Source: Candidatus Levyibacteriota bacterium
Lineage (GTDB): Bacteria; Patescibacteriota; Microgenomatia; Levybacterales; UBA12049
Assembly: GCA_029260965.1 (NCBI GenBank)
Contig: JAJDCG010000001.1
Location: 89,221-153,220, forward strand
Direction of reading: 5' to 3'
Length of the DNA: 64,000 bases
Below, one piece after another: positions 2,884 to 56,418 of the stretch (positions within the stretch are counted from its first letter, which is position 1; each line of letters opens with the position of its first letter). The position numbers and the translations under genes are program-made. The notes under the pieces were generated by a model, which was not told the origin of the DNA, searched no databases, and saw only the letters and a program-made list of their open reading frames with translations.

Positions 2884-4053
2884 CTATTGTGAGCTTAGTG
2901 CCTGAATGCCAGGGAGGGTGCCGTTTTCAATGTAGAAAAGCATTGCTCCTCCTCCAGTTGAGATATGGGTTATTTTATCTAGATATTCCTTTTTGGAGAT
3001 AGCAGCCAGAGTATCACCTCCTCCAATTACAGACATTGCTTTCTCGTTTTCTGCAATTGAATAGTAGAGAAAGTCTGTTCCTCTTTTGAAAACTGGATTT
3101 TCCATGTAGCCAACTGGTCCGTTCCAGATAATGGTGCCTGCCTGATCTATAATTTTTCCAAACTCTGCTTCCGTCTCAGGACCGATATCTAGTACTTGGT
3201 TATGTGGTTCTATTTCTTCGATTTTTTTAACCTCGCTGGTTTTTCCATTTTTGTCATTTGCAATAATCGCATCTTTAGGTAATTCAAAACGAGTTTTTTC
3301 TTCGCGTGCCAAAGATAATATTTCTTTTGCGGTTTTTATATCCTGTTCTTCAATTGGCCCATTGTCAAAACTGTGCCCCTCGGCAACCAGGAAAGCGTTA
3401 GCAAGACCTCCTCCAAGAAGAAGGTAGTCAGCAACAGTTACAAGCTTGTTTATAAATTTTATCTTGGTTCTTATTTTTTTCCCTCCGATGATTGCAACAA
3501 ACGGTTTCTTGGGATTTTTCATTACCCGATCAAGGATAGTAATTTCTTTTTTCATGAGTAAGCCTCCGTATGAAGGAAGATGTTTGGGAATTCCAACAAC
3601 TGATGCGTGCTCACGGTGACTGACACCAAAGGCATCGTTTACATAGACATCACCAAGTGTTGACAGTTCTTTGGCAAATTCAGGATCGTTTTTGGTTTCG
3701 CCTGGATAAAACCTGATGTTCTCAAGGAGTACAATGTCGTGATTATTTTTTGTTAGTCCTTCTGGGTTTTTCAAAAAATCTTTTACAAAGACTATTTTCT
3801 TATCAGGAAGGTACTCTGCAAGCCTGTTCTTGACTCTTATGAGAGAGTCATCAGAATTTCTTTTTTCAGGTTCAGATAGATGTGCAATAATCACGAGCTT
3901 GTTGTGGTTTTTGAGAAGGTATTTGATAGTAGGAAGAGATTGTTTAATTCTCTGATCATCTGCAATTGAGAGGTTAGGGTTAAGCGAGACATTAAAGTCC
4001 ACCCTTAGAAGAACAGTTTTATTTTTTATTTCAACTTCATCAACAAATTTCAT
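2884..4053 (-). CDS. pgk: phosphoglycerate kinase
   Basis: 389 aa. The N-terminus MKFVDEVEIKNKTVLLRVDFNV and an overall length and fold pattern typical of PGK. Confidence 0.85.
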   Translation of the reverse strand: MKFVDEVEIKNKTVLLRVDFNVSLNPNLSIADDQRIKQSLPTIKYLLKNHNKLVIIAHLSEPEKRNSDDSLIRVKNRLAEYLPDKKIVFVKDFLKNPEGLTKNNHDIVLLENIRFYPGETKNDPEFAKELSTLGDVYVNDAFGVSHREHASVVGIPKHLPSYGGLLMKKEITILDRVMKNPKKPFVAIIGGKKIRTKIKFINKLVTVADYLLLGGGLANAFLVAEGHSFDNGPIEEQDIKTAKEILSLAREEKTRFELPKDAIIANDKNGKTSEVKKIEEIEPHNQVLDIGPETEAEFGKIIDQAGTIIWNGPVGYMENPVFKRGTDFLYYSIAENEKAMSVIGGGDTLAAISKKEYLDKITHISTGGGAMLFYIENGTLPGIQALSSQ

Positions 4054-4115
4054 GGGGTGTGACTTGAGTATAACACAGAGTTTTGAAATAATTTAAATTA
4101 AGTTAATATAAGATT

Positions 4116-4832
4116 GTGAATCAGAACGGAAAGTTGCTACAGCTAAAAAAAGAAATAAAATCTTTTGGGAGTGCTGAGAAGGCGGAGTTTGCCAAGAGAT
4201 TTTTTAAATCAGGCAAGGGCGAGTATGGCGAGGGTGATATATTCCTCGGGCTTACCGTTCCCGAGCAGAGAAAGATCGCATCAGGTTATACTGATCTGAG
4301 TCTACCTGACCTGCAAAAGCTTCTAGATGATAGGATTCATGAGTACCGATTTGTTGCGCTGGTGATCCTAATGCACAAATATAAAAAAGCTGATAAAGAG
4401 GGCAAGAAAGAAATCTTTGATTTTTATATAAAGAATACATTGCAAGTGAATAATTGGGATTTGGTTGATGTTTCAGCACCTGGTATAGTTGGAGATTATT
4501 TATCTGACAAAGATAAAAAAATTCTTTATAGACTTGCTCGATCAAAAAATCACTGGGAAAGGAGAATTGCTATAGTCGCTACTTTCGCCTTTATCCGCAA
4601 AAATGAATTTGGGAATACTCTCGCGATTGCAGAGATATTGCTGAGTGATATGCATGATCTCATCCACAAAGCTGTTGGCTGGATGCTGCGGGAGGTTGGG
4701 ATAAGAGACGTTGGAGCACTCTACAAGTTTTTGGATAAGCATTGTAAAGTCATGCCTCGCACTACGCTCCGCTACTCGCTTGAGAAATTTGAAAAAAAGA
4801 AAAAAGAATTTTATATGGGGGGGAAAGGTTGA
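4116..4832 (+). CDS. DNA alkylation repair protein (AlkD/AlkC-like HEAT-repeat glycosylase family)
   Basis: 238 aa with an FAKRFFKSGKGEYGEGDIFLG...NNWDLVD...GWMLREVG pattern, as in the DNA_alkylation family. Confidence 0.6.
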   Translation: MNQNGKLLQLKKEIKSFGSAEKAEFAKRFFKSGKGEYGEGDIFLGLTVPEQRKIASGYTDLSLPDLQKLLDDRIHEYRFVALVILMHKYKKADKEGKKEIFDFYIKNTLQVNNWDLVDVSAPGIVGDYLSDKDKKILYRLARSKNHWERRIAIVATFAFIRKNEFGNTLAIAEILLSDMHDLIHKAVGWMLREVGIRDVGALYKFLDKHCKVMPRTTLRYSLEKFEKKKKEFYMGGKG

Positions 4833-4854
4833 ATTTTTATAGTATAATTAAATT

Positions 4855-5343
4855 ATGAACCTTGGAAAGATTGATTTTAAAAAGGATATTGAAGCAGTAC
4901 ATTTGGTTATTGCAAAAGCTTTTTCAGATACCCCAGACATGAATTTGGATATATGGTTTTCTTTTTCAGAAATGAGTAAAATTATTTTAGAAGGTAGAGG
5001 AGTTTGCTTAAAAGCTATTTCTGAAAATAAGATTGTAGGTATGATTTTTGCCAAGCAGGAGAGTCCCGTAAACGGAAAAGAAGGATTAGAGAAATGGGTA
5101 ATTGTTGTGATAGCAGTAGATCCAGATATGGCCGATAAGGGTGTTGGTTCGCTTTTACTAGCTGAGGTTGAAAAAGAGGCTCAGGATATGGGTGCTTTAA
5201 AGATGTTTGTTTATACCAATTTTGATGACGAACGAGTGATCCATTTTTATAAGAAGAATAATTATCAAGATGCTGGATATATAAAGGATTATCAATACGG
5301 TAAAGATAATTCTGCTGTCTTTCTTCTTAAATATTTAAAATAG
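4855..5343 (+). CDS. GNAT family N-acetyltransferase
   Basis: The acetyl-CoA binding region VGSLLLAEVEKEAQDMGA..VYTNFDDERVIHFYKKNNY. Confidence 0.6.
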   Translation: MNLGKIDFKKDIEAVHLVIAKAFSDTPDMNLDIWFSFSEMSKIILEGRGVCLKAISENKIVGMIFAKQESPVNGKEGLEKWVIVVIAVDPDMADKGVGSLLLAEVEKEAQDMGALKMFVYTNFDDERVIHFYKKNNYQDAGYIKDYQYGKDNSAVFLLKYLK

Positions 5344-5440
5344 TGAATCTTACCACAAAGAAGATTCGATTTTGATTTTGTCAGATTTCTAAAATGATTT
5401 CTATTATATCTTAAGAAAATGACCAGAGATAATTAGCCTA

Positions 5441-6358
5441 CTACCTTGCTAGGTTTGATCTTAATTGATCGAAGATTTGTGGTATACTTTGCAATCTTTC
5501 TTCAACTATATTTTTCTCCGCGCAAGCTGTCTCCAGCGCGATCCTGTCATCTGCAGAAAGAACAGTCACAGTAGTTGTTTTTGAGAACATAATAGCTGAT
5601 TCATTTTCCATGTGTGGTATACCAATGGCGTGGCCAAATTCGTGTGCGAGGGTGTGCACTAGTTCTTCCCGGGAGGTGTCAAAGTAAATATTGATAGTTT
5701 CTTTACCTCCAGAGTACACATATTCTCCTTGTTCAGGTTTATATTTAAGCTCCTCGTTAAAATTTCTTATTGTTTGATTAAGCTCTCCCACCTGCTGGTT
5801 ATAGATATCAGTTGATTGATTAAGAGATGCTGCCTCAGATTTTAAGGATTCTGCCTCGGATTGTACTGACTTTTGTCTCTGGATTAAACTCTCATATTCA
5901 TCAGGTGGTGCGCCTCCTCTCTCATTCCAGTACTGTATATCTTCATTTAACTTTTTAACTATTATCTGAAATTCCTGCGCGCGCCTGTTGTAGTCTGCGA
6001 TTTTGGTATCCAGCTCGCCTTGCTCTGATTTTACCTGAGTATCCAGTTCGTTGATCTGACTGTTGAGAAATTGTCTTTGATCATAGACCAGATTTATCTC
6101 AATATCACCTTGGGGATCGTATTCAAATAATGTTGACGGATACTCAGAATTCCAAATTTGGGCTGCTTCATCAACATAAGAAAGGAATTGGGATTCAGAC
6201 ATATTATAGCGGTTATCAATTGATCCTATTTTGTATGTTTTTGGATTTTTACAGGATGATTGATAGACTAGATCGCGCGCAGCGTTTGAAATATATGGCG
6301 TGCTGAAAGCTCCAAAGCTCAAGGTGAGAATTGCTATAAAAATCAATATTTTTTTCAT
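5441..6358 (-). CDS. secreted zinc metalloprotease (matrixin/metzincin-like) with coiled-coil region
   Basis: It has an N-terminal signal peptide. The central region is heptad- and charge-rich. The C-terminal motif HEFGHAIGIPH matches HExxHxxGxxH. Confidence 0.55.
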   Translation of the reverse strand: MKKILIFIAILTLSFGAFSTPYISNAARDLVYQSSCKNPKTYKIGSIDNRYNMSESQFLSYVDEAAQIWNSEYPSTLFEYDPQGDIEINLVYDQRQFLNSQINELDTQVKSEQGELDTKIADYNRRAQEFQIIVKKLNEDIQYWNERGGAPPDEYESLIQRQKSVQSEAESLKSEAASLNQSTDIYNQQVGELNQTIRNFNEELKYKPEQGEYVYSGGKETINIYFDTSREELVHTLAHEFGHAIGIPHMENESAIMFSKTTTVTVLSADDRIALETACAEKNIVEERLQSIPQIFDQLRSNLAR

Positions 6359-6361
6359 AGG

Positions 6362-6916
6362 TTATCTTAAATTTTTACCTGCCCAGCCAATTTTTTTATT
6401 TTTTTTAGTTTTTTCAATAAAGTTATTTAGTCTTTTTATGAAATCATCTGGTCTGGATCGGGCAGCTTCAATAAATCCTAGTCTAATATTTTGATATGAT
6501 TTTGGAAAGTTTTGAAAATTTGTCCAAACAAGTTCGTCTTTTTTAAGCTCTTTGAGTATATCAGGTGATATCCCTTGTTCTTTTATAGGTGTGTAGTATT
6601 TTAGGCCTGCTGGGGTCATCAAATTCTCTCTAATGAGCTTCTTCATCCGTTCTATATTAAGTACAGACCAGTTGCTTTTTGCACGCCTGATAGAAAATCG
6701 TTGAGCATAAGTCTCATCATCAATTCCTTTGACTGTGCTGTCAATCCAGCCATAGCAAAGAGCCTCCTCTACAGCGTCATCATAAGTAATTCGAGGCTTG
6801 CCCGATGCTTTTTTATAATAAATCAGCCAGATTTCTTTTTCTTTATTATGGTTATTGGAGAGCCAAGCGCGCCAGGCTTTTCGCGTTTTAACATAAAGTG
6901 TTTTGCCAATCTGCAT
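6362..6916 (-). CDS. YdeI/OmpD-associated (DUF1801-related) family protein
   Basis: The segment LYVKTRKAWRAWL...IWLIYYKK.SGKPRITYDDAVEEALCYGWIDS resembles the YdeI family. Confidence 0.5.
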   Translation of the reverse strand: MQIGKTLYVKTRKAWRAWLSNNHNKEKEIWLIYYKKASGKPRITYDDAVEEALCYGWIDSTVKGIDDETYAQRFSIRRAKSNWSVLNIERMKKLIRENLMTPAGLKYYTPIKEQGISPDILKELKKDELVWTNFQNFPKSYQNIRLGFIEAARSRPDDFIKRLNNFIEKTKKNKKIGWAGKNLR

Positions 6917-7004
6917 TAGTTTATTTTACCCCCACATCATAAATCGGTCAATTAGGGCGAGCTAGTAGGAAGTCTGATTGTGTTTATGGTATAATCCCGT
7001 GGCA

Positions 7005-7769
7005 ATGACTGAAAGGCGGACAGGCAGAGAGGCTGAGGGGGGCAATGTAGATCTCCGGGCACAACTTAGAGAATTTGCGGGTATTCGAGATGGCAAGGAG
7101 AGGGAGGTGGCTCTGATCCGCTTGGCTAGGAATATGAGATCCGCAAACATAAAAGAGATTGATGCTTTAATTCCTCCTGAATGGGCCAAAATACAAAAAC
7201 ACCTTGAGAAGAAGGTTGACCACACACTTATAACCCTTATAAAGCTTTATGCTAGTTCAGAACCCCGACAGATTTGGACAGGAAAGGCAGCTGTTGCAGT
7301 CTTATCCCGAGAGGGAGAAGTTTTAGGCCTGACACATAGAGAACACAGTGAAGAAGAAGATGATGGACGGGTCGCTGCAATGGGAGAGGCTATCGTGAGG
7401 GCAGCAACAACCCTTCATTTTGAGCAACTGCAGAGAAGTGGAGGTTTGGCTAGTAGAGATAATTACAAAGAATTAAAGCGTATAGAAAAAAGATACGGAG
7501 TAAGGTTGTCATCAGGATCAGCGGATAATTCTATTAATTATGATAACAGATTTATATATGTCGCAGGTGCAAGCACGGGTGTAAGACCTGGGTTTTTAGA
7601 CCCCTTTTCCAAGTCTCCTATAAAGCGTAATGAGACAAAACAGGAATTTTTTGATAAAGTTTTTTCCGATAGAGTTTTGTGGCTATATGTATATCCGTTA
7701 AGAGATCATGGTCCGATCGTTTTGGGTCCATATTCAACCTCAAAAAGAAAACCTCTTGACAAAAATTAG
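7005..7769 (+). CDS. hypothetical protein (GC-richer orphan)
   Basis: An ORF in the 6978..7769 frame. The ATG at 7005 lies ~10 nt after an extended -10 (TGgTATAAT at 6987-6995). Composition is visibly GC-richer than the flanks. No recognisable domain. Confidence 0.4.
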   Translation: MTERRTGREAEGGNVDLRAQLREFAGIRDGKEREVALIRLARNMRSANIKEIDALIPPEWAKIQKHLEKKVDHTLITLIKLYASSEPRQIWTGKAAVAVLSREGEVLGLTHREHSEEEDDGRVAAMGEAIVRAATTLHFEQLQRSGGLASRDNYKELKRIEKRYGVRLSSGSADNSINYDNRFIYVAGASTGVRPGFLDPFSKSPIKRNETKQEFFDKVFSDRVLWLYVYPLRDHGPIVLGPYSTSKRKPLDKN

Positions 7770-40220: not shown

Positions 40221-40292
40221 TCCCCTGTAGCTCAATGGTAGAGCGCGCGACTGTTAATCGCTAGGTTCGAGGTTCGAATCCTCGCGGGGGAG
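40221..40292 (+). tRNA. tRNA-Asn (anticodon GTT)
   Basis: The acceptor is TCCCCTG/CGGGGGA. D-arm GCTCAATGGTAGAGC. Anticodon loop CTGTTAA. T-arm CGAGGTTCGAATCCTCG. The CCA is not encoded. Confidence 0.85.
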
Positions 40293-40305
40293 CAAAATTG
40301 TCAAT

Positions 40306-40392
40306 TTGTAGCTCAGCGGTACCTGCCTGCCGGCAGGCAGGGAGCAGGAAGCTGCTAACTTCAAGGTCCGAGGTTCGAATCCTCGCGTGGGA
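40306..40392 (+). pseudogene. tRNA-like element / probable tRNA pseudogene with 20-nt palindromic insertion in the D-loop
   Basis: The canonical D-arm GTAGCTCAGCGGTA|GAGC is interrupted by the perfect palindrome CCTGCCTGCCGGCAGGCAGG at 40322-40341. The anticodon-like loop is CTGCTAA. The T-arm and 3' acceptor are near-identical to the tRNA-Asn 3' end, but no complementary 5' acceptor strand is present. Confidence 0.5.
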
Positions 40393-46656: not shown

Positions 46657-47052
46657 ATGAAGACAATAGTCTCATCAGACAAGATTTACGTTTCCGTTTC
46701 AAAAATCCCTGACTCTGGTCGTGGAGTATTTGCTAGAGTTGATATCAAAAAAGGAGAAATTATCGAGACCTGTCCTCTGATAGAAATACCAGTAAATGAT
46801 TTTGCAAACATAAATCAAAGCTTTCTAGTAACGTACTTTTTTTCATTTGGAGCCAAAAAAGAAACACTAGCAATAGCCCTTGGTTTTGGCGCTATTTATA
46901 ACCATACCTATACTCCAAATGCTACTTATAAAAAGGTGTCAGGTGAAAGCATTATGAAATTTATTGCGCTTAAAAACATCAAAAAGCACCAAGAAATAAC
47001 CGTAAATTATAACAACGGTGATCCAACAGACACCACCCCTCTCTGGTTTTAG
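46657..47052 (+). CDS. SET-domain protein (bacterial lysine methyltransferase-like), minimal form
   Basis: GRGVFARVDIKKGEII, then NHTYTPNA (the NHS motif), then EITVNY (the ELxxDY-like motif). 131 aa, with no post-SET Cys cluster. Confidence 0.65.
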   Translation: MKTIVSSDKIYVSVSKIPDSGRGVFARVDIKKGEIIETCPLIEIPVNDFANINQSFLVTYFFSFGAKKETLAIALGFGAIYNHTYTPNATYKKVSGESIMKFIALKNIKKHQEITVNYNNGDPTDTTPLWF

Positions 47053-50117: not shown

Positions 50118-50360
50118 ATGCAACAGACTGTAATAAAAGTCGGAAATTCTCTTGCTGTAACTGTTCCCAGCACTTTTGCAAAAGAAAGGAAACTCAAGGC
50201 TGGTCAGAAAGTATTTGTTCAGGCAGATTCTGATTCTGATATTATGCAGGTAAGCACAGAACAAAACCCTGATACAAGTATGAGTCCGGAATTTTTGAGT
50301 TGGCTTAAAAAATTTAATGCAAAATATAAGAAAGGCCTCACAGAGCTTGCCAAAAAGTGA
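50118..50360 (+). CDS. AbrB/MazE/SpoVT-type antitoxin
   Basis: MQQTVIKVGNSLAVTVPSTFAKERKLKAGQKVFV is a swapped-hairpin beta-barrel. A 4-nt overlap with the downstream Doc gene. Confidence 0.7.
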   Translation: MQQTVIKVGNSLAVTVPSTFAKERKLKAGQKVFVQADSDSDIMQVSTEQNPDTSMSPEFLSWLKKFNAKYKKGLTELAKK

Positions 50361-50746
50361 AAGTAAGATACATATCTTTTAAAGAAGTAGCCGCAATTCA
50401 CGAAGACATGATTGATCAATATGGTGGAAGTCATGGGATTCGAGATCTGGGACTTGTAGAATCTGCGCTGGCAAGACCTCAAGCTCCATTTAGTAAAATT
50501 GATCTGTATAAGACAATCTTTGATAAAGCTGCAGCGCTTTTTCATTCCATGATGTTTAATTATGCATTTGTTGATGGCAATAAACGTACGACTTTTGCTA
50601 TAGCTGTTAGATTTTTGTATAAAAACGGCTATTCTTTGGAGATTTCTCAGGAAGAAGTAGTTAATTTTCCGCTTAGTGTAGAAAATGAACATCTTTCAGT
50701 GGAAGAAATCGCCGCGTGGCTCGAGGATAACTCCAAAAAAACTTAG
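50357..50746 (+). CDS. Doc/Fic-family toxin (death-on-curing)
   Basis: The Fic/Doc motif is HSMMFNYAFVDGNKRTTF (H.F.DGNKR). Confidence 0.8.
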   Translation: MKVRYISFKEVAAIHEDMIDQYGGSHGIRDLGLVESALARPQAPFSKIDLYKTIFDKAAALFHSMMFNYAFVDGNKRTTFAIAVRFLYKNGYSLEISQEEVVNFPLSVENEHLSVEEIAAWLEDNSKKT

Positions 50747-53334: not shown

Positions 53335-53398
53335 TTAAATTTTCAATATAAGTTTACTACTTGACTTATGTATCAGCATACTAGTATAATATAAAACA

Positions 53399-53656
53399 AT
53401 GAATAGAAATTCTAAAGAGTTGAATGAACTGATGAATGTGGTTTTGAAGCTAAAAAGTAGACGTGAGCTTGAAGATTTTTTATATGGAATTTTGACACCC
53501 AAAGAACTTATTGAAATTCCAAATAGGCTGAAAATTGTAAAACTTTTAAAAAATGGAATTACACATCAGGATATTTCAAGCAAGTTAAAAGTCGGGGTTG
53601 CGACAGTGACACGAGGATCACGCGAAATTCAGAAAGGGAGATTTAAATATGTATAA
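53399..53656 (+). CDS. YerC/YecD (TrpR-like) family DNA-binding protein
   Basis: LKSRRELEDFLYGILTPKELIEIPNRLKIVKLLKNGITHQDISSKLKVGVATVTRGSR. Confidence 0.65.
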   Translation: MNRNSKELNELMNVVLKLKSRRELEDFLYGILTPKELIEIPNRLKIVKLLKNGITHQDISSKLKVGVATVTRGSREIQKGRFKYV

Positions 53657-53744
53657 AAATAAAAATATAAAAAATTGGTGGAACAGCCTAACTCTTTTGG
53701 GAGGCTGATTTTCGCGTTTAAAATTTCCTAAACACCTACATGAA

Positions 53745-53768
53745 CCTCTCAATTCGAGAGGTTTTTTA
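53745..53768 (+). terminator. Rho-independent terminator
   Basis: CCTCTC-aattc-GAGAGG followed by TTTTTT. Confidence 0.65.
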
Positions 53769-54000
53769 TTGATTATGAAAGAATTTGAAATAAATACTAA
53801 TGGAAAGGAAACCCCACAGCCTGAAAAAGGTGAGGGGTCGGTTTGGAGAAAATAATAATGTAGTTGAGTTTACTACAGCAAGAGAATTTATGAGGTTCAT
53901 GTTTGATGAGTCAGGATCAGATAGTATTTCTGTCTTTTCTTCTTACCATACATATCAAAATAATATTAAAATTGGAAAAGTATTAAAGGAGGTAAACGCT

Positions 54001-54924
54001 ATGAGTAAAAGAAACATGGGAATTTATGACGGATCAAAAAAGGATGCACAGGTTATGATCCAGCCGGAAATGCGGGACGCATTAAGAGTGGCGGGTAGGG
54101 TGCTTGTAGATTTGGCGGATATTACAGATAGGATTATTTTACCTGAGTTCGGAGATGAAATGCACAATTTTATTGCCCAAGTTGTGTTTGCTCATACTCA
54201 AGACAAACCGATAAATATTTTTACGCCATGTTGTCCTGATTGGTCACGGGATTCAAAGGGACAATATGATTTTAAATCATTAGGTGGGGAAGTAAGTTTT
54301 ATCGCCCGAAAAGTTTTTCGGGAAGTGCCACCTGTTTTGCGGATATTAAATAAGCACGGCATTCCATATAATGGAACTTTGGTTTTAGCAAATTATGGTT
54401 CTGAAACTGAAATTACTGCAAAAGACACATATGGTAGGAAATTAAGTGCTGATGATATTCAAATGTGTTTTGCATCAAGTTTGGCAAAAACCGATGAAGA
54501 ACTTTCAGGACTGCAAAAGAATGATAGCGGAATTTTTAATTCATATCGGGTAATACCCATGACAGAATTCTTTGATGATCAGGGGATAGATGAGGATCAA
54601 ATATTGGGAGATGCTTGTGAATATTTCAAGTCAGATAGCAAAGGAAAGAAACTAGTCAGTCAATTGCATAGAGATAGTATTGGATTAAATAAAGGGCGAT
54701 TAGGTTTGAGTGAGGAAGAAAATTTAGAGCAAACAATACGCGGATGTGCGGAATATGGAGTGTTCGGGTATGCAATGGGGCAGCAGGGAGTTATTCTTGC
54801 CGCAGAATCCAGAACGACAAGCCGTGCATACAATCTTTTTAGACGCAGCAAAGGTCAAGATGTGATGCCTTTGTTTTATTTGAAAGGTAGAAGAGGGGTT
54901 AATGAAGGAGTTAATATATTATGA
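54001..54924 (+). CDS. hypothetical protein (GC-richer), upstream operon partner of a SET-domain gene
   Basis: A strong SD (AAGGAGG) lies 7 nt before the ATG at 54001. No recognisable domain. A 4-nt ATGA overlap with the SET gene. Confidence 0.45.
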   Translation: MSKRNMGIYDGSKKDAQVMIQPEMRDALRVAGRVLVDLADITDRIILPEFGDEMHNFIAQVVFAHTQDKPINIFTPCCPDWSRDSKGQYDFKSLGGEVSFIARKVFREVPPVLRILNKHGIPYNGTLVLANYGSETEITAKDTYGRKLSADDIQMCFASSLAKTDEELSGLQKNDSGIFNSYRVIPMTEFFDDQGIDEDQILGDACEYFKSDSKGKKLVSQLHRDSIGLNKGRLGLSEEENLEQTIRGCAEYGVFGYAMGQQGVILAAESRTTSRAYNLFRRSKGQDVMPLFYLKGRRGVNEGVNIL

Positions 54925-55409
54925 AAAATGAAGTTGTAATTAGAAAAACAAGTGATAAAGATTTTGGTCTATTTGCAACTCGTGATTTTATGAAAGGTGA
55001 AATTGTTGTACAGGGTAAAAAAATAAAAAAGGTACCTGATAGGACAATGCATTCATTTCAGATCGATAAAGCTACGCACATACAACTTGATAAAAAATCA
55101 CGAAGTATTAATCATTCCTGCGACCCAAACATGGGTATAAGGAATAATAAGTTTAATGCTTATGACTTTATTGCTCTGCGTAATATAGAAAAAGGCGAAG
55201 AGGTTACATGGGATTATGAGACAACAGAGCATGTTTCAATAGCCGTTGAAAAATGCTTGTGTAATACTACATCATGTAGAAAGAGCCTAATTGGTTTTAA
55301 GTACAGATCGGAAGAGCTGTTAGATAAGTATGGAATTTTTATTGCAGATTACTTAAAGTTTTTGTACGCTCAGCAACTCTTGCTTGCGAAAGTTTCAGCA
55401 AACAGATAA
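54921..55409 (+). CDS. SET-domain protein with post-SET cysteine cluster
   Basis: GLFATRDFMKGEIV, then INHSCDPN (the NHSC motif), then EEVTWDY, then the post-SET CLCNTTSCR. Confidence 0.7.
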   Translation: MKNEVVIRKTSDKDFGLFATRDFMKGEIVVQGKKIKKVPDRTMHSFQIDKATHIQLDKKSRSINHSCDPNMGIRNNKFNAYDFIALRNIEKGEEVTWDYETTEHVSIAVEKCLCNTTSCRKSLIGFKYRSEELLDKYGIFIADYLKFLYAQQLLLAKVSANR

Positions 55410-55425
55410 TATTAATGATGAAATT

Positions 55426-56418
55426 ATGAATATGAAAAAAAGGGTGCTATCTGGTATCAGAGCAACCGGGAGACTGCACCTTGGTAATTATCTTGGAGCG
55501 ATAAAGGGAATGCTTGAGCTTCAAGACAATCCTGACTATGAGAATCTTTATATGGTTGCTGATCTTCATACTTTGACGACTCCATATGATGTAGAGGAAT
55601 TAAGGAAAAATAGACGCGAGGTAATTATTGATTACTTGTCTGCAGGACTTGATCCTGAAAAAAGCATTCTTTTTCAACAAGCTGATAACCCATATCATCT
55701 GGAACTTGCTTATTTGTTTTCATCAGTTATGACAGTTGCCAAGATGCAACATCTGCCGACTTTTAAAGAAAAGGTCAAGCAGCATCCTGAAAATGTCACA
55801 ATGGCGCTACTTAATTATCCAGTCCTGATGGCAGCAGATATCCTGATCTATAAAGCAGATAGTGTGCCAGTTGGTCTTGATCAGGAGCCTCATGTTGAGG
55901 TCGCGCGTGAAATTGCTCGTCGTATGAATCAGGATTATGGAACGAATTTTCCGGAACCCAAGAGGTTTAAAACAGAGGGTCAATATGTTCCATCACTTCT
56001 TGGTGAAGGAAAGATGAGCAAGAGTGTGGAGGGAAGCTTTATTAATCTTGTTGATGATCTGGAGACAATAAAAGCAAAAATTGCGAAAGCTCCAACAGAT
56101 ACCGGTAGTATTGGAGGGGAGATACCAAAAGAAGGTGGAGTTGCAAATCTGTTTACACTGTTAAAATTGATTGGATCAGATGAAGTGTATAATAAATTTA
56201 TACTAGATTACAGAGACAAAAAAATCCGCTATAGTGAGATGAAAGAGATTCTCTCAGATGCAATTTATAAAGAGCTCCAGCCCATCCAGGAAAAGCGTAA
56301 ATATTTTGAAACACATCCTGAAATAGTAGGTGAAATTATTGCAGAGGGAAATAAAAAAGCAATTGCTATTGCCCGGGAAACAGTTGAGGAAGTAAAAAAG
56401 AAAATGGGATTATTATGA
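55426..56418 (+). CDS. trpS: tryptophan--tRNA ligase
   Basis: RVLSGIRATGRLHLGNYLGA is the HIGH-type motif. KMSKS is present. 55426 and 55432 are alternative starts. Confidence 0.85.
   Translation: MNMKKRVLSGIRATGRLHLGNYLGAIKGMLELQDNPDYENLYMVADLHTLTTPYDVEELRKNRREVIIDYLSAGLDPEKSILFQQADNPYHLELAYLFSSVMTVAKMQHLPTFKEKVKQHPENVTMALLNYPVLMAADILIYKADSVPVGLDQEPHVEVAREIARRMNQDYGTNFPEPKRFKTEGQYVPSLLGEGKMSKSVEGSFINLVDDLETIKAKIAKAPTDTGSIGGEIPKEGGVANLFTLLKLIGSDEVYNKFILDYRDKKIRYSEMKEILSDAIYKELQPIQEKRKYFETHPEIVGEIIAEGNKKAIAIARETVEEVKKKMGLL

Follow-up and report, generated by a model that had tools for sequence, protein, structure and literature searches.

Introduction

Aminoacyl-tRNA synthetases (aaRSs) have several truncated paralogues, among them GluQRS/YadB, MshC, BshC and HisZ, in which the synthetase catalytic domain has taken on a regulatory role or a reaction outside translation. 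Here we describe a gene pair of a Candidatus Levyibacteriota bacterium, found on the forward strand of a 64,000-nt stretch of contig JAJDCG010000001.1 (positions 89,221 to 153,220; hereafter the window, in whose own numbering all positions are given). The first gene encodes an unannotated protein, here called X, and the second a small SET-domain methyltransferase, here called SET, and the pair is followed by the gene for tryptophanyl-tRNA synthetase (TrpRS). Our results point to X as a member of a previously unannotated, synthetase-derived family that escapes sequence searches against Pfam, NCBIfam and the PDB. GluQRS and MshC keep the ATP motifs and a clear sequence homology to their parent synthetases, while X keeps neither.

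Three of the closest described systems are relevant here. In the cyclodipeptide synthase (CDPS) AlbC, an aminoacyl-tRNA hands its aminoacyl group over to Ser37, located in the loop after the first strand of the pocket (beta3), while Tyr178 and Glu182, on helix alpha7 ahead of the next pocket strand, position the substrate, and the S37C variant stays active via a thioester (PMC3105412). BurB is a SET-domain methionine S-methyltransferase acting on free methionine, in which H72 contacts S-adenosylmethionine (SAM), and R70 and T73 contact methionine through their main chains (PMC12542666). Finally, operons for TrpRS-A in Microgenomates carry an unknown gene, ORF1, whose product has been proposed to be class-I-like; it is reported to have HIGH-like and KMSKS-like motifs and no Trp residues, and accompanies tRNATrp(A73) and TrpRS-A (Mukai et al., 2017, PMC5370408). 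In the literature searched, no account was found of a family with the CPDY motif described below, and none of SET proteins that have an aaRS-like partner.

Predicted fold and family of protein X

The confident AlphaFold model of X matches only the catalytic domains of tyrosyl-tRNA synthetase (TyrRS) and TrpRS, the cyclodipeptide synthases and PvcA. The highest fold-comparison score was reached by TyrRS 6bqy (14.4), followed by other TyrRSs (12-13), cyclodipeptide synthases (9.3-12.3), PvcA (11.5) and TrpRSs (8.5-10.6), with more distant class-I synthetases ranking below TrpRS, and the top 50 matches obtained independently with Foldseek consist of TyrRS, CDPS, TrpRS and PvcA only. According to this model, X is a Rossmann domain of the class-Ic synthetase (TyrRS/TrpRS) type that ends just past the point where the KMSKS loop would lie; ~130 aa of additional helical structure precede this domain at the N-terminus, and an anticodon-binding domain is lacking. 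In the numbering of the 374-aa form of X, which is used throughout, C145 directly follows the first Rossmann strand (138-144), E318 and Y319 are part of helix 305-325, which precedes strand 331-334, and E336-S337 come after that strand.

The first-pass annotation of this DNA had seen no known domain in X, and this holds: there are no Pfam or NCBIfam matches at E<=1 and no meaningful PDB match by sequence. A first search returned 24 homologues, all of them unnamed or called 'hypothetical', and the named organisms, Curtissbacteria and Roizmanbacteria, fit the earlier impression of a genome of the candidate phyla radiation (CPR) type. Their alignment contains ~35 invariant, mostly polar positions and the motifs TPxCPDWSRD, YDFKSLG, ADWGxETE, AKDTYG, AEY, AAES, YN, P-FxLKG and a C-terminal GVNIL, and neither HIGH nor KMSKS is seen in it. 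The invariant C145-P146-D147-W148 loop is encoded at ~54232-54243. GVNIL is kept also in loci without SET, so its conservation reflects more than the ribosome-binding site of SET alone.

An exhaustive profile search of 1.84 billion representatives extended the family to 128 proteins at E<=1e-3, and the P-x-C-P-D-Y/W motif is present in almost all of the ~100 distant relatives. In an alignment of 61 superfamily sequences, Cys and Pro of this loop are invariant, and Asp, Glu204 and Tyr319 are conserved in at least 90%; no member has a credible Pfam match, and the names, where given, are 'hypothetical protein'. Long forms of 571-851 aa (P0026-P0029; L008, 2313-4814; L019, L022) bear an N-terminal extension of 250-530 aa, which matches nothing in Pfam, and are still trailed by SET and a class-Ic synthetase. 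Domain fusions offered no functional clue, as neither these forms nor ten other long relatives contain an informative Pfam domain. The family has so far been met in metagenomic and CPR-type genomes only, and a scan of the GTDB species representatives yielded a single X locus, in Curtissbacteria.

The earlier description of X as a 307-aa protein with a strong Shine-Dalgarno sequence needs to be amended. Both the AAGGAGG at 53986-53992 and the ATG at 54001 exist, but the frame remains open back to an ATG at 53800, and this start, giving 374 aa, is more likely. The longer form is favoured because an open frame extends 159-330 nt 5' of the conserved core in all 19 X loci examined, despite the AT-rich DNA, because an N-terminal 'ERKPxSL..RGxFG' motif is common to X of the window, L001 and P0004, and because AlphaFold predicts residues 21-70 to be helical, with a predicted local distance difference test score (pLDDT) of 71-95. 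An additional internal start may be used as well.

One resemblance of X to an unrelated protein was considered and rejected. The segment 'FTPCCPDW' (residues ~120-150, window 54160-54250) resembles the H-cluster motif 'FTSCCPGW' of CpI-type [FeFe]-hydrogenases, which a profile of the family (A1) matched at E 0.004 over 39 residues. The match is judged coincidental: X has a single invariant Cys and none of the remaining ligands of the cluster, and with a broader profile (A2) the match weakens to E 1.3, and to a different, HydA-type chain. In a weak alignment of A2 with TrpRS, CPDY, 'LG.G' and 'AD' fall opposite the first strand, the HIGH helix and 'ADLH', respectively, which is at most suggestive.

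The sequence of X thus sets it apart from each of its structural relatives. Compared with the TyrRS and TrpRS catalytic domains it lacks HIGH, KMSKS, the tRNA anticodon domain, a tRNA-synt_1b profile match (Pfam E<=1) and detectable sequence homology, and canonical aminoacylation is therefore very unlikely. Cyclodipeptide synthases (AlbC, Rv2275, YvmC) have a Ser in a GxS loop, whereas X has a Cys in a CPD[WY] loop and no match to the Pfam CDPS profile; moreover, X is ~100 aa longer, with the N-terminal helical domain and a beta-hairpin insertion, and CDPS genes go with tailoring oxidases, whereas X goes with TrpRS or TyrRS. X may nevertheless work like a CDPS, although by sequence it falls outside that family. 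PvcA and Dit1 differ from X in their set of conserved motifs, and X has no DIT1_PvcA match and no oxygenase or P450 partner gene. The ORF1 of Microgenomates is also distinct, since X is devoid of both its motifs, has an invariant Trp, and is found beside a bacterial-type TrpRS or TyrRS with no adjoining tRNATrp gene.

Linkage of X to tryptophanyl- and tyrosyl-tRNA synthetases

The 19 distinct X loci, collected by gene-level look-ups and a metagenome scan, were analysed together by script. X and SET are adjacent in 16 of them, and wherever gene calls exist (eight loci) the two genes overlap by 4 nt. SET is missing from L021, L024 and L026, and in the latter two TrpRS follows X immediately. Fourteen loci extend far enough downstream to show what comes next, and in 13 of them, all but L006, TrpRS or TyrRS was found 3' of X or of X-SET. 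L002 and L008 have TyrRS and the others TrpRS, always with HIGH- and KMSKS-type motifs. This switch of synthetase beside X speaks for a functional linkage rather than frozen synteny, and the position of a structural paralogue beside a gene of the parental type hints that X arose through tandem duplication. No tRNATrp or tRNATyr gene adjoining X was found in the loci checked.

Two distant superfamily members were examined for their context. The first (L028) lies in the order TrpR-like gene, X-like gene, NIF3/DUF34 (overlapping the X-like gene by 4 nt), TrpRS and tRNA_bind; in the second (L029), the X-like gene is followed by a second X-like CPDY paralogue (hhalign 3e-40; the tandem pair at 6001-7592), TrpRS, tRNA_bind and FtsH. 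The most conserved partner of X is consequently the Trp/Tyr-tRNA synthetase, and SET is the usual, replaceable middle gene in the Microgenomates branch. The first-pass annotation had missed both the TrpRS gene 16 nt 3' of SET and the general linkage to class-Ic synthetases.

A different arrangement is seen in L009 (5428-9625), where X-SET is followed by a HicAB toxin-antitoxin pair, a 529-aa TrpRS with an N-terminal YbaK-type tRNA_edit domain, LPG_synthase_C and tRNA_bind. This contig is of the Microgenomates type, and LPG_synthase_C is an aminoacyl-tRNA-dependent transferase.

The SET methyltransferase and its lineage

The SET protein had been described in the first-pass annotation as a complete catalytic core with NHSCDPN, EEVTWDY and CLCNTTSCR motifs, and this description was borne out. 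Residues 15-99 of the 162-aa protein match Pfam SET (PF00856; E 6.2e-15; 56 bits, cut-off 22.4), and Q47, N64, H65, C67, P69, Y99, C112, C114 and C119 are invariant in an alignment of 40 homologues, in which the SAM-binding and catalytic positions (G16, N64, H65, C67, P69 and Y99) are all invariant or nearly so. The Cys of NHSC (C67) and the three of the post-SET CxCx4C cluster (C112, C114, C119) would form a putative zinc-binding site. A C-terminal extension, or helix, GFK..KYG..IADYLK is conserved as well, and the AF2 model (pLDDT 94) has the SET fold.

The best PDB sequence match is BurB (9l4t, E 4.6e-9), followed by MLL4 (1.5e-8), and Foldseek also ranks BurB first (E 4.5e-10, template modelling (TM) score 0.66, full length), ahead of MLL, ASH1L and SETD2 (TM 0.54-0.63; MLL domains, 0.54-0.60; MLL4, 0.59). 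With the BurB/MSMT enzymes SET shares a length of ~160-170 aa, NHSC..PN, DY and the CxCx4C post-SET cluster, whereas the identity to BurB is 26% over the Foldseek structural alignment. The SET segment TMHSFQIDKATHI aligns with RLHTLQINAHTHL of BurB, the common part being 'H-S/T-F/L-Q-I', and this stretch of BurB includes R70, H72 and T73; because BurB contacts methionine through main chains only, the substrate of SET is unreadable from its sequence. Genes of a BurI/BurD/BurE-type dimethylsulfoniopropionate (DMSP) pathway are absent from the X loci; in the window, the neighbours of SET are the TrpR-like gene, X, TrpRS and a 214-aa open reading frame (ORF). The catalytic core of SET is thus complete, and its nearest characterised relative, by a narrow margin, acts on a small molecule. 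The analogy drawn earlier with secreted effectors of pathogens found no support.

The lineage of SET extends far beyond the X loci. Among 91 homologues, orthologues with 50-57% identity were found in Nostoc, Dolichospermum, Sphaerospermopsis, Streptomyces globisporus, Saccharimonadales, Mesorhizobium and others, and X was near none of the three that were inspected, from Nostoc (L010), Streptomyces (L011) and Saccharimonadales (L012). In a rough neighbour-joining tree, the X-linked SETs are not monophyletic, with the cyanobacterial, actinobacterial and Saccharimonadales sequences nested among them. The SET enzyme evidently works without X, and the nesting of X-less orthologues among X-linked ones argues against X as its substrate, which we regard as unlikely. 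The suggestion that X is a substrate or partner of SET is accordingly upheld as far as the conserved neighbourhood is concerned (16 of 19 loci), while the idea of a substrate is not supported, in view of X-less SET orthologues and SET-less X loci; part of what had been named earlier as a refuting outcome was thereby observed, namely that X is not conserved beside SET homologues elsewhere.

In Nostoc, genes for an FGE-sulfatase-domain protein, an FA_hydroxylase and an EamA transporter precede SET on one strand (3285-7483). This may be a small-molecule pathway, which might reveal the substrate of SET. In Streptomyces, SET lies near an AsnC-type regulator and an ATP-grasp gene, and in Saccharimonadales it lies 60 nt 3' of a 357-aa protein and beside an AA_kinase-domain gene. 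The 357-aa protein was considered as a hidden X and ruled out (hhalign probability 0.2%); by eye it resembles homoserine dehydrogenase. These amino-acid-related neighbours circumstantially fit a small-molecule role.

Proposed function and alternatives

From the observed genes, motifs, fold similarity, loss of HIGH and KMSKS and gene linkage, we infer what X may act on, what its Cys may do and what SET may methylate. The explanation to which we tentatively lean, while granting it somewhat less than an even chance, is that X is an enzyme derived from a class-Ic synthetase catalytic domain and tied to Trp/Tyr aminoacylation, to which Microgenomates have added a BurB-like SET. Because HIGH and KMSKS are lost and there is no anticodon-binding domain, X itself probably does not activate an amino acid; it would rather act on the aromatic aminoacyl moiety provided by the co-transcribed TrpRS or TyrRS, either as Trp/Tyr-tRNA or as the free amino acid. 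The placement of C145 and of E318/Y319 parallels that of S37 and Y178/E182 in AlbC, which leads us to propose Cys145 as the likely nucleophile or a key ligand, possibly aided by the near-invariant Glu204 and Tyr319. In the TyrRS of Bacillus stearothermophilus, Cys35 at the equivalent strand end contacts the ribose of tyrosyl-adenylate. SET, translationally coupled to X, would methylate the same small-molecule or aminoacyl substrate, or its product, and most likely not a lysine of X. Since a TrpR-like repressor gene heads the operon in some lineages, control by tryptophan is suggested. A narrower version, in which X-SET is a tRNA-dependent system where X, as a Cys-type CDPS-like enzyme, takes the Trp or Tyr group from the tRNA charged by the co-transcribed synthetase, as a thioester on the invariant Cys, and SET methylates the product while tethered or once released, is unlikely.

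Several observations weigh against this explanation. The kinship of X with synthetases is drawn from its predicted structure; with the A1 and A2 profiles, hhalign found no significant sequence homology to TrpRS or TyrRS (E 0.13-0.57), and the Pfam CDPS and DIT1_PvcA models do not match. The equivalence of C145 to the CDPS serine, as modelled, is only topological, and the bulk charge of X, with an isoelectric point of 5.2-8.9 and hence not basic, gives no hint of tRNA binding. BurB leads the histone SET domains narrowly (39 against 38 bits; TM 0.66 against 0.60), and a protein-lysine substrate of SET would be compatible with this margin. The TrpR-like gene is found upstream in just four of the ~16 X loci having upstream DNA (the window, L001, L004 and L006), and other lineages have NIF3, or no gene at all, between X and TrpRS, so that SET may be a lineage-specific passenger. 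The 4-nt overlap of X and SET is also of a kind common in the genome of the window.

SET could instead be a protein-lysine methyltransferase, with X or the co-transcribed TrpRS/TyrRS as its substrate or obligate partner. The frequent adjacency with X and its 4-nt overlap would suit such a pair, SET keeps the features typical of lysine methyltransferases (catalytic Tyr, NH motif), the SET domains of MLL, ASH1L and SETD2 score nearly as high as BurB, and X offers the conserved lysines K159, K171 and K362. We nevertheless consider this unlikely, given the X-less orthologues nested among the X-linked SETs; furthermore, the three SET-less X loci show no consistent loss of a conserved lysine (K362 is Leu in one of them), and the genome already holds a separate, vSET-like protein of the lysine-methyltransferase type. 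Among the other structural relatives, PvcA and Dit1 would offer a model in which X modifies the alpha-amino group of free Trp or Tyr (to an isonitrile or N-formyl group) without tRNA and SET methylates the product. This is slightly less likely still, as DIT1_PvcA matches none of the 61 superfamily members, no Fe/2-oxoglutarate oxygenase or P450 partner gene occurs in the loci examined, and deep conservation beside a housekeeping synthetase in reduced genomes would be unusual for secondary metabolism.

The tight linkage of X to TrpRS and TyrRS over deep divergence could also mean that X is a quality-control or accessory factor for these enzymes, with SET functionally unrelated; X might, for instance, use its Cys to deacylate tRNATrp/Tyr that is mischarged or carries a D-amino acid. 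The tRNA_edit domain fused to TrpRS in L009 and the tRNA_bind genes after TrpRS in L009, L028 and L029 make proofreading or tRNA handling a local theme, and a nucleophile at the acyl-enzyme position of CDPSs could hydrolyse aminoacyl-tRNA. However, a deacylase with a class-I fold is without precedent, X has no obvious basic character, and it would be left unexplained why translation of X is constantly coupled to that of SET or NIF3, which makes this possibility the most improbable of those weighed here. Adjacency could, on the other hand, be merely historical, X being a tandem-duplicated class-Ic domain kept as a regulatory or structural pseudo-enzyme (cf. HisZ), beside which SET was inserted independently. 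A structural paralogue next to its parent is the expected outcome of tandem duplication, the middle gene varies between SET, NIF3, a second copy of X and nothing, SET works elsewhere without X, and short overlaps are common in this genome. Yet the invariant, mostly polar residues and the strict Cys-Pro-Asp loop suggest catalysis, and inheritance alone can hardly explain how X-SET persists beside a synthetase that is TrpRS in some loci and TyrRS in others, so a purely historical association has, in our opinion, a small probability. As for the first-pass annotation, its observations were largely correct and its interpretation half right: the neighbour of SET appears from its modelled fold to be not an anonymous substrate but a member of a class-Ic-synthetase-like family.

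Layout of the locus

The TrpR-like gene, X, SET, TrpRS and the 214-aa gene form a tight series on the forward strand between 53.3 and 57.1 kb (Table 1). The TrpR-like YerC gene and terminator noted earlier upstream of the pair are both present. The former is assigned by Pfam Trp_repressor (E 5.4e-19, 68.5 bits against a cut-off of 27), and it passes the curated cut-off of NCBIfam yecD_yerC (TIGR02531) marginally (42.7 against 42.2 bits). Its ATG lies 8 nt past the -10 box of a near-consensus promoter, and the mRNA may therefore be leaderless or nearly so. The 143-nt spacer between this gene and X (53657-53799) contains two hairpins, each followed by a T-run, and the RNA fold of 53654-53805 has z = -3.4. 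The second hairpin, lying just before X, would be an intrinsic terminator or possibly an attenuator, and as a pair the two could act as terminators in tandem or as an attenuator of X-SET-TrpRS. No riboswitch or T-box leader was found 5' of X: no Rfam match reached its gathering threshold, and relaxing the limit to E<=10 brought up nothing but noise. A weak promoter-like site is seen between the two hairpins (53697-53724).

Table 1. Features of the X-SET locus and the second SET gene in window coordinates.
Feature	Position	Strand	Basis or remarks
Promoter-like site, TTGACT-18-TATAAT, 11/12	53361..53390	+	Consensus match only; directly 5' of the TrpR-like gene
TrpR-like YerC/YecD-family regulator, 85 aa	53399..53656	+	Pfam Trp_repressor, NCBIfam yecD_yerC
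First intergenic hairpin, then T-run	53678..53715	+	Stem conserved with changed bases in L001, L004, L006
Second hairpin and T-tract (hairpin 53742-53764)	53742..53774	+	Stem conserved with changed bases in L001, L004, L006
Protein X, 374 aa (307 aa from ATG 54001)	53800..54924	+	Unannotated family; predicted class-Ic aaRS/CDPS/PvcA-like Rossmann core
BurB-like minimal SET methyltransferase, 162 aa	54921..55409	+	Pfam SET; putative post-SET Zn-Cys cluster
Tryptophanyl-tRNA synthetase	55426..56418 (start 55426 or 55432)	+	Pfam tRNA-synt_1b 8.7e-61
Second SET protein, 131 aa, vSET-like	46657..47052	+	Pfam SET 3e-15; outside the X-SET operon

The ATG of SET overlaps the TGA of X as ATGA (54921-54924), as described previously, and is preceded by a Shine-Dalgarno sequence, GAAGGAG, within the 3' end of X (54904-54910). 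TrpRS has intact HLGN (HIGH) and KMSKS motifs, and its stop is overlapped by 4 nt (56415-56418) by the uncharacterised 214-aa gene. Start/stop overlaps of 4 nt are common throughout this compact genome; another such pair is formed by an 80-aa ORF (50118-50360) and a 129-aa ORF (50357-50746), the latter resembling, by eye, a Fic/Doc-type toxin. The first-pass annotation had called the gene for X GC-richer, which does not hold, as its GC content (0.379-0.386) is close to that of TrpRS (0.386) and to the window mean (0.370), and it is SET that is low (0.331). GC content as a sign of a foreign origin of X was therefore dismissed.

The second minimal SET protein reported earlier at 46657 was confirmed. 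Its best PDB relative is the 119-aa vSET of PBCV-1 (1n3j, E 1.7e-15), an H3K27 methyltransferase. It lies among small ORFs, has no post-SET Cys cluster and is unrelated to the SET of the operon, and the genome of the window, as judged from sequence, carries two different SET types. Elsewhere in the window, 40307-40387 gives a weak Rfam tRNA match (34.8 bits, model positions 6-65) just after tRNA-Asn (40221-40293); ARAGORN makes no call there, and a divergent, truncated or intron-bearing tRNA is possible.

Conclusions

Stand-alone descendants of synthetase domains, such as CDPS, PvcA, GluQRS and MshC, have each brought unexpected chemistry, and X is another such family, to judge from its predicted fold. 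Its persistence beside TrpRS or TyrRS in minimal genomes implies an important role in Trp/Tyr handling or in tRNA biology. SET, in turn, is a second candidate lineage of small-molecule SET methyltransferases, with close orthologues in cyanobacteria and actinobacteria. If the narrower, tRNA-dependent version outlined above is true, no SET enzyme before this one would have had a part in aminoacyl-tRNA-dependent chemistry, and the CPR-wide 'CPDY' family would join CDPS and PvcA as a third functional branch among the descendants of class-Ic synthetases.

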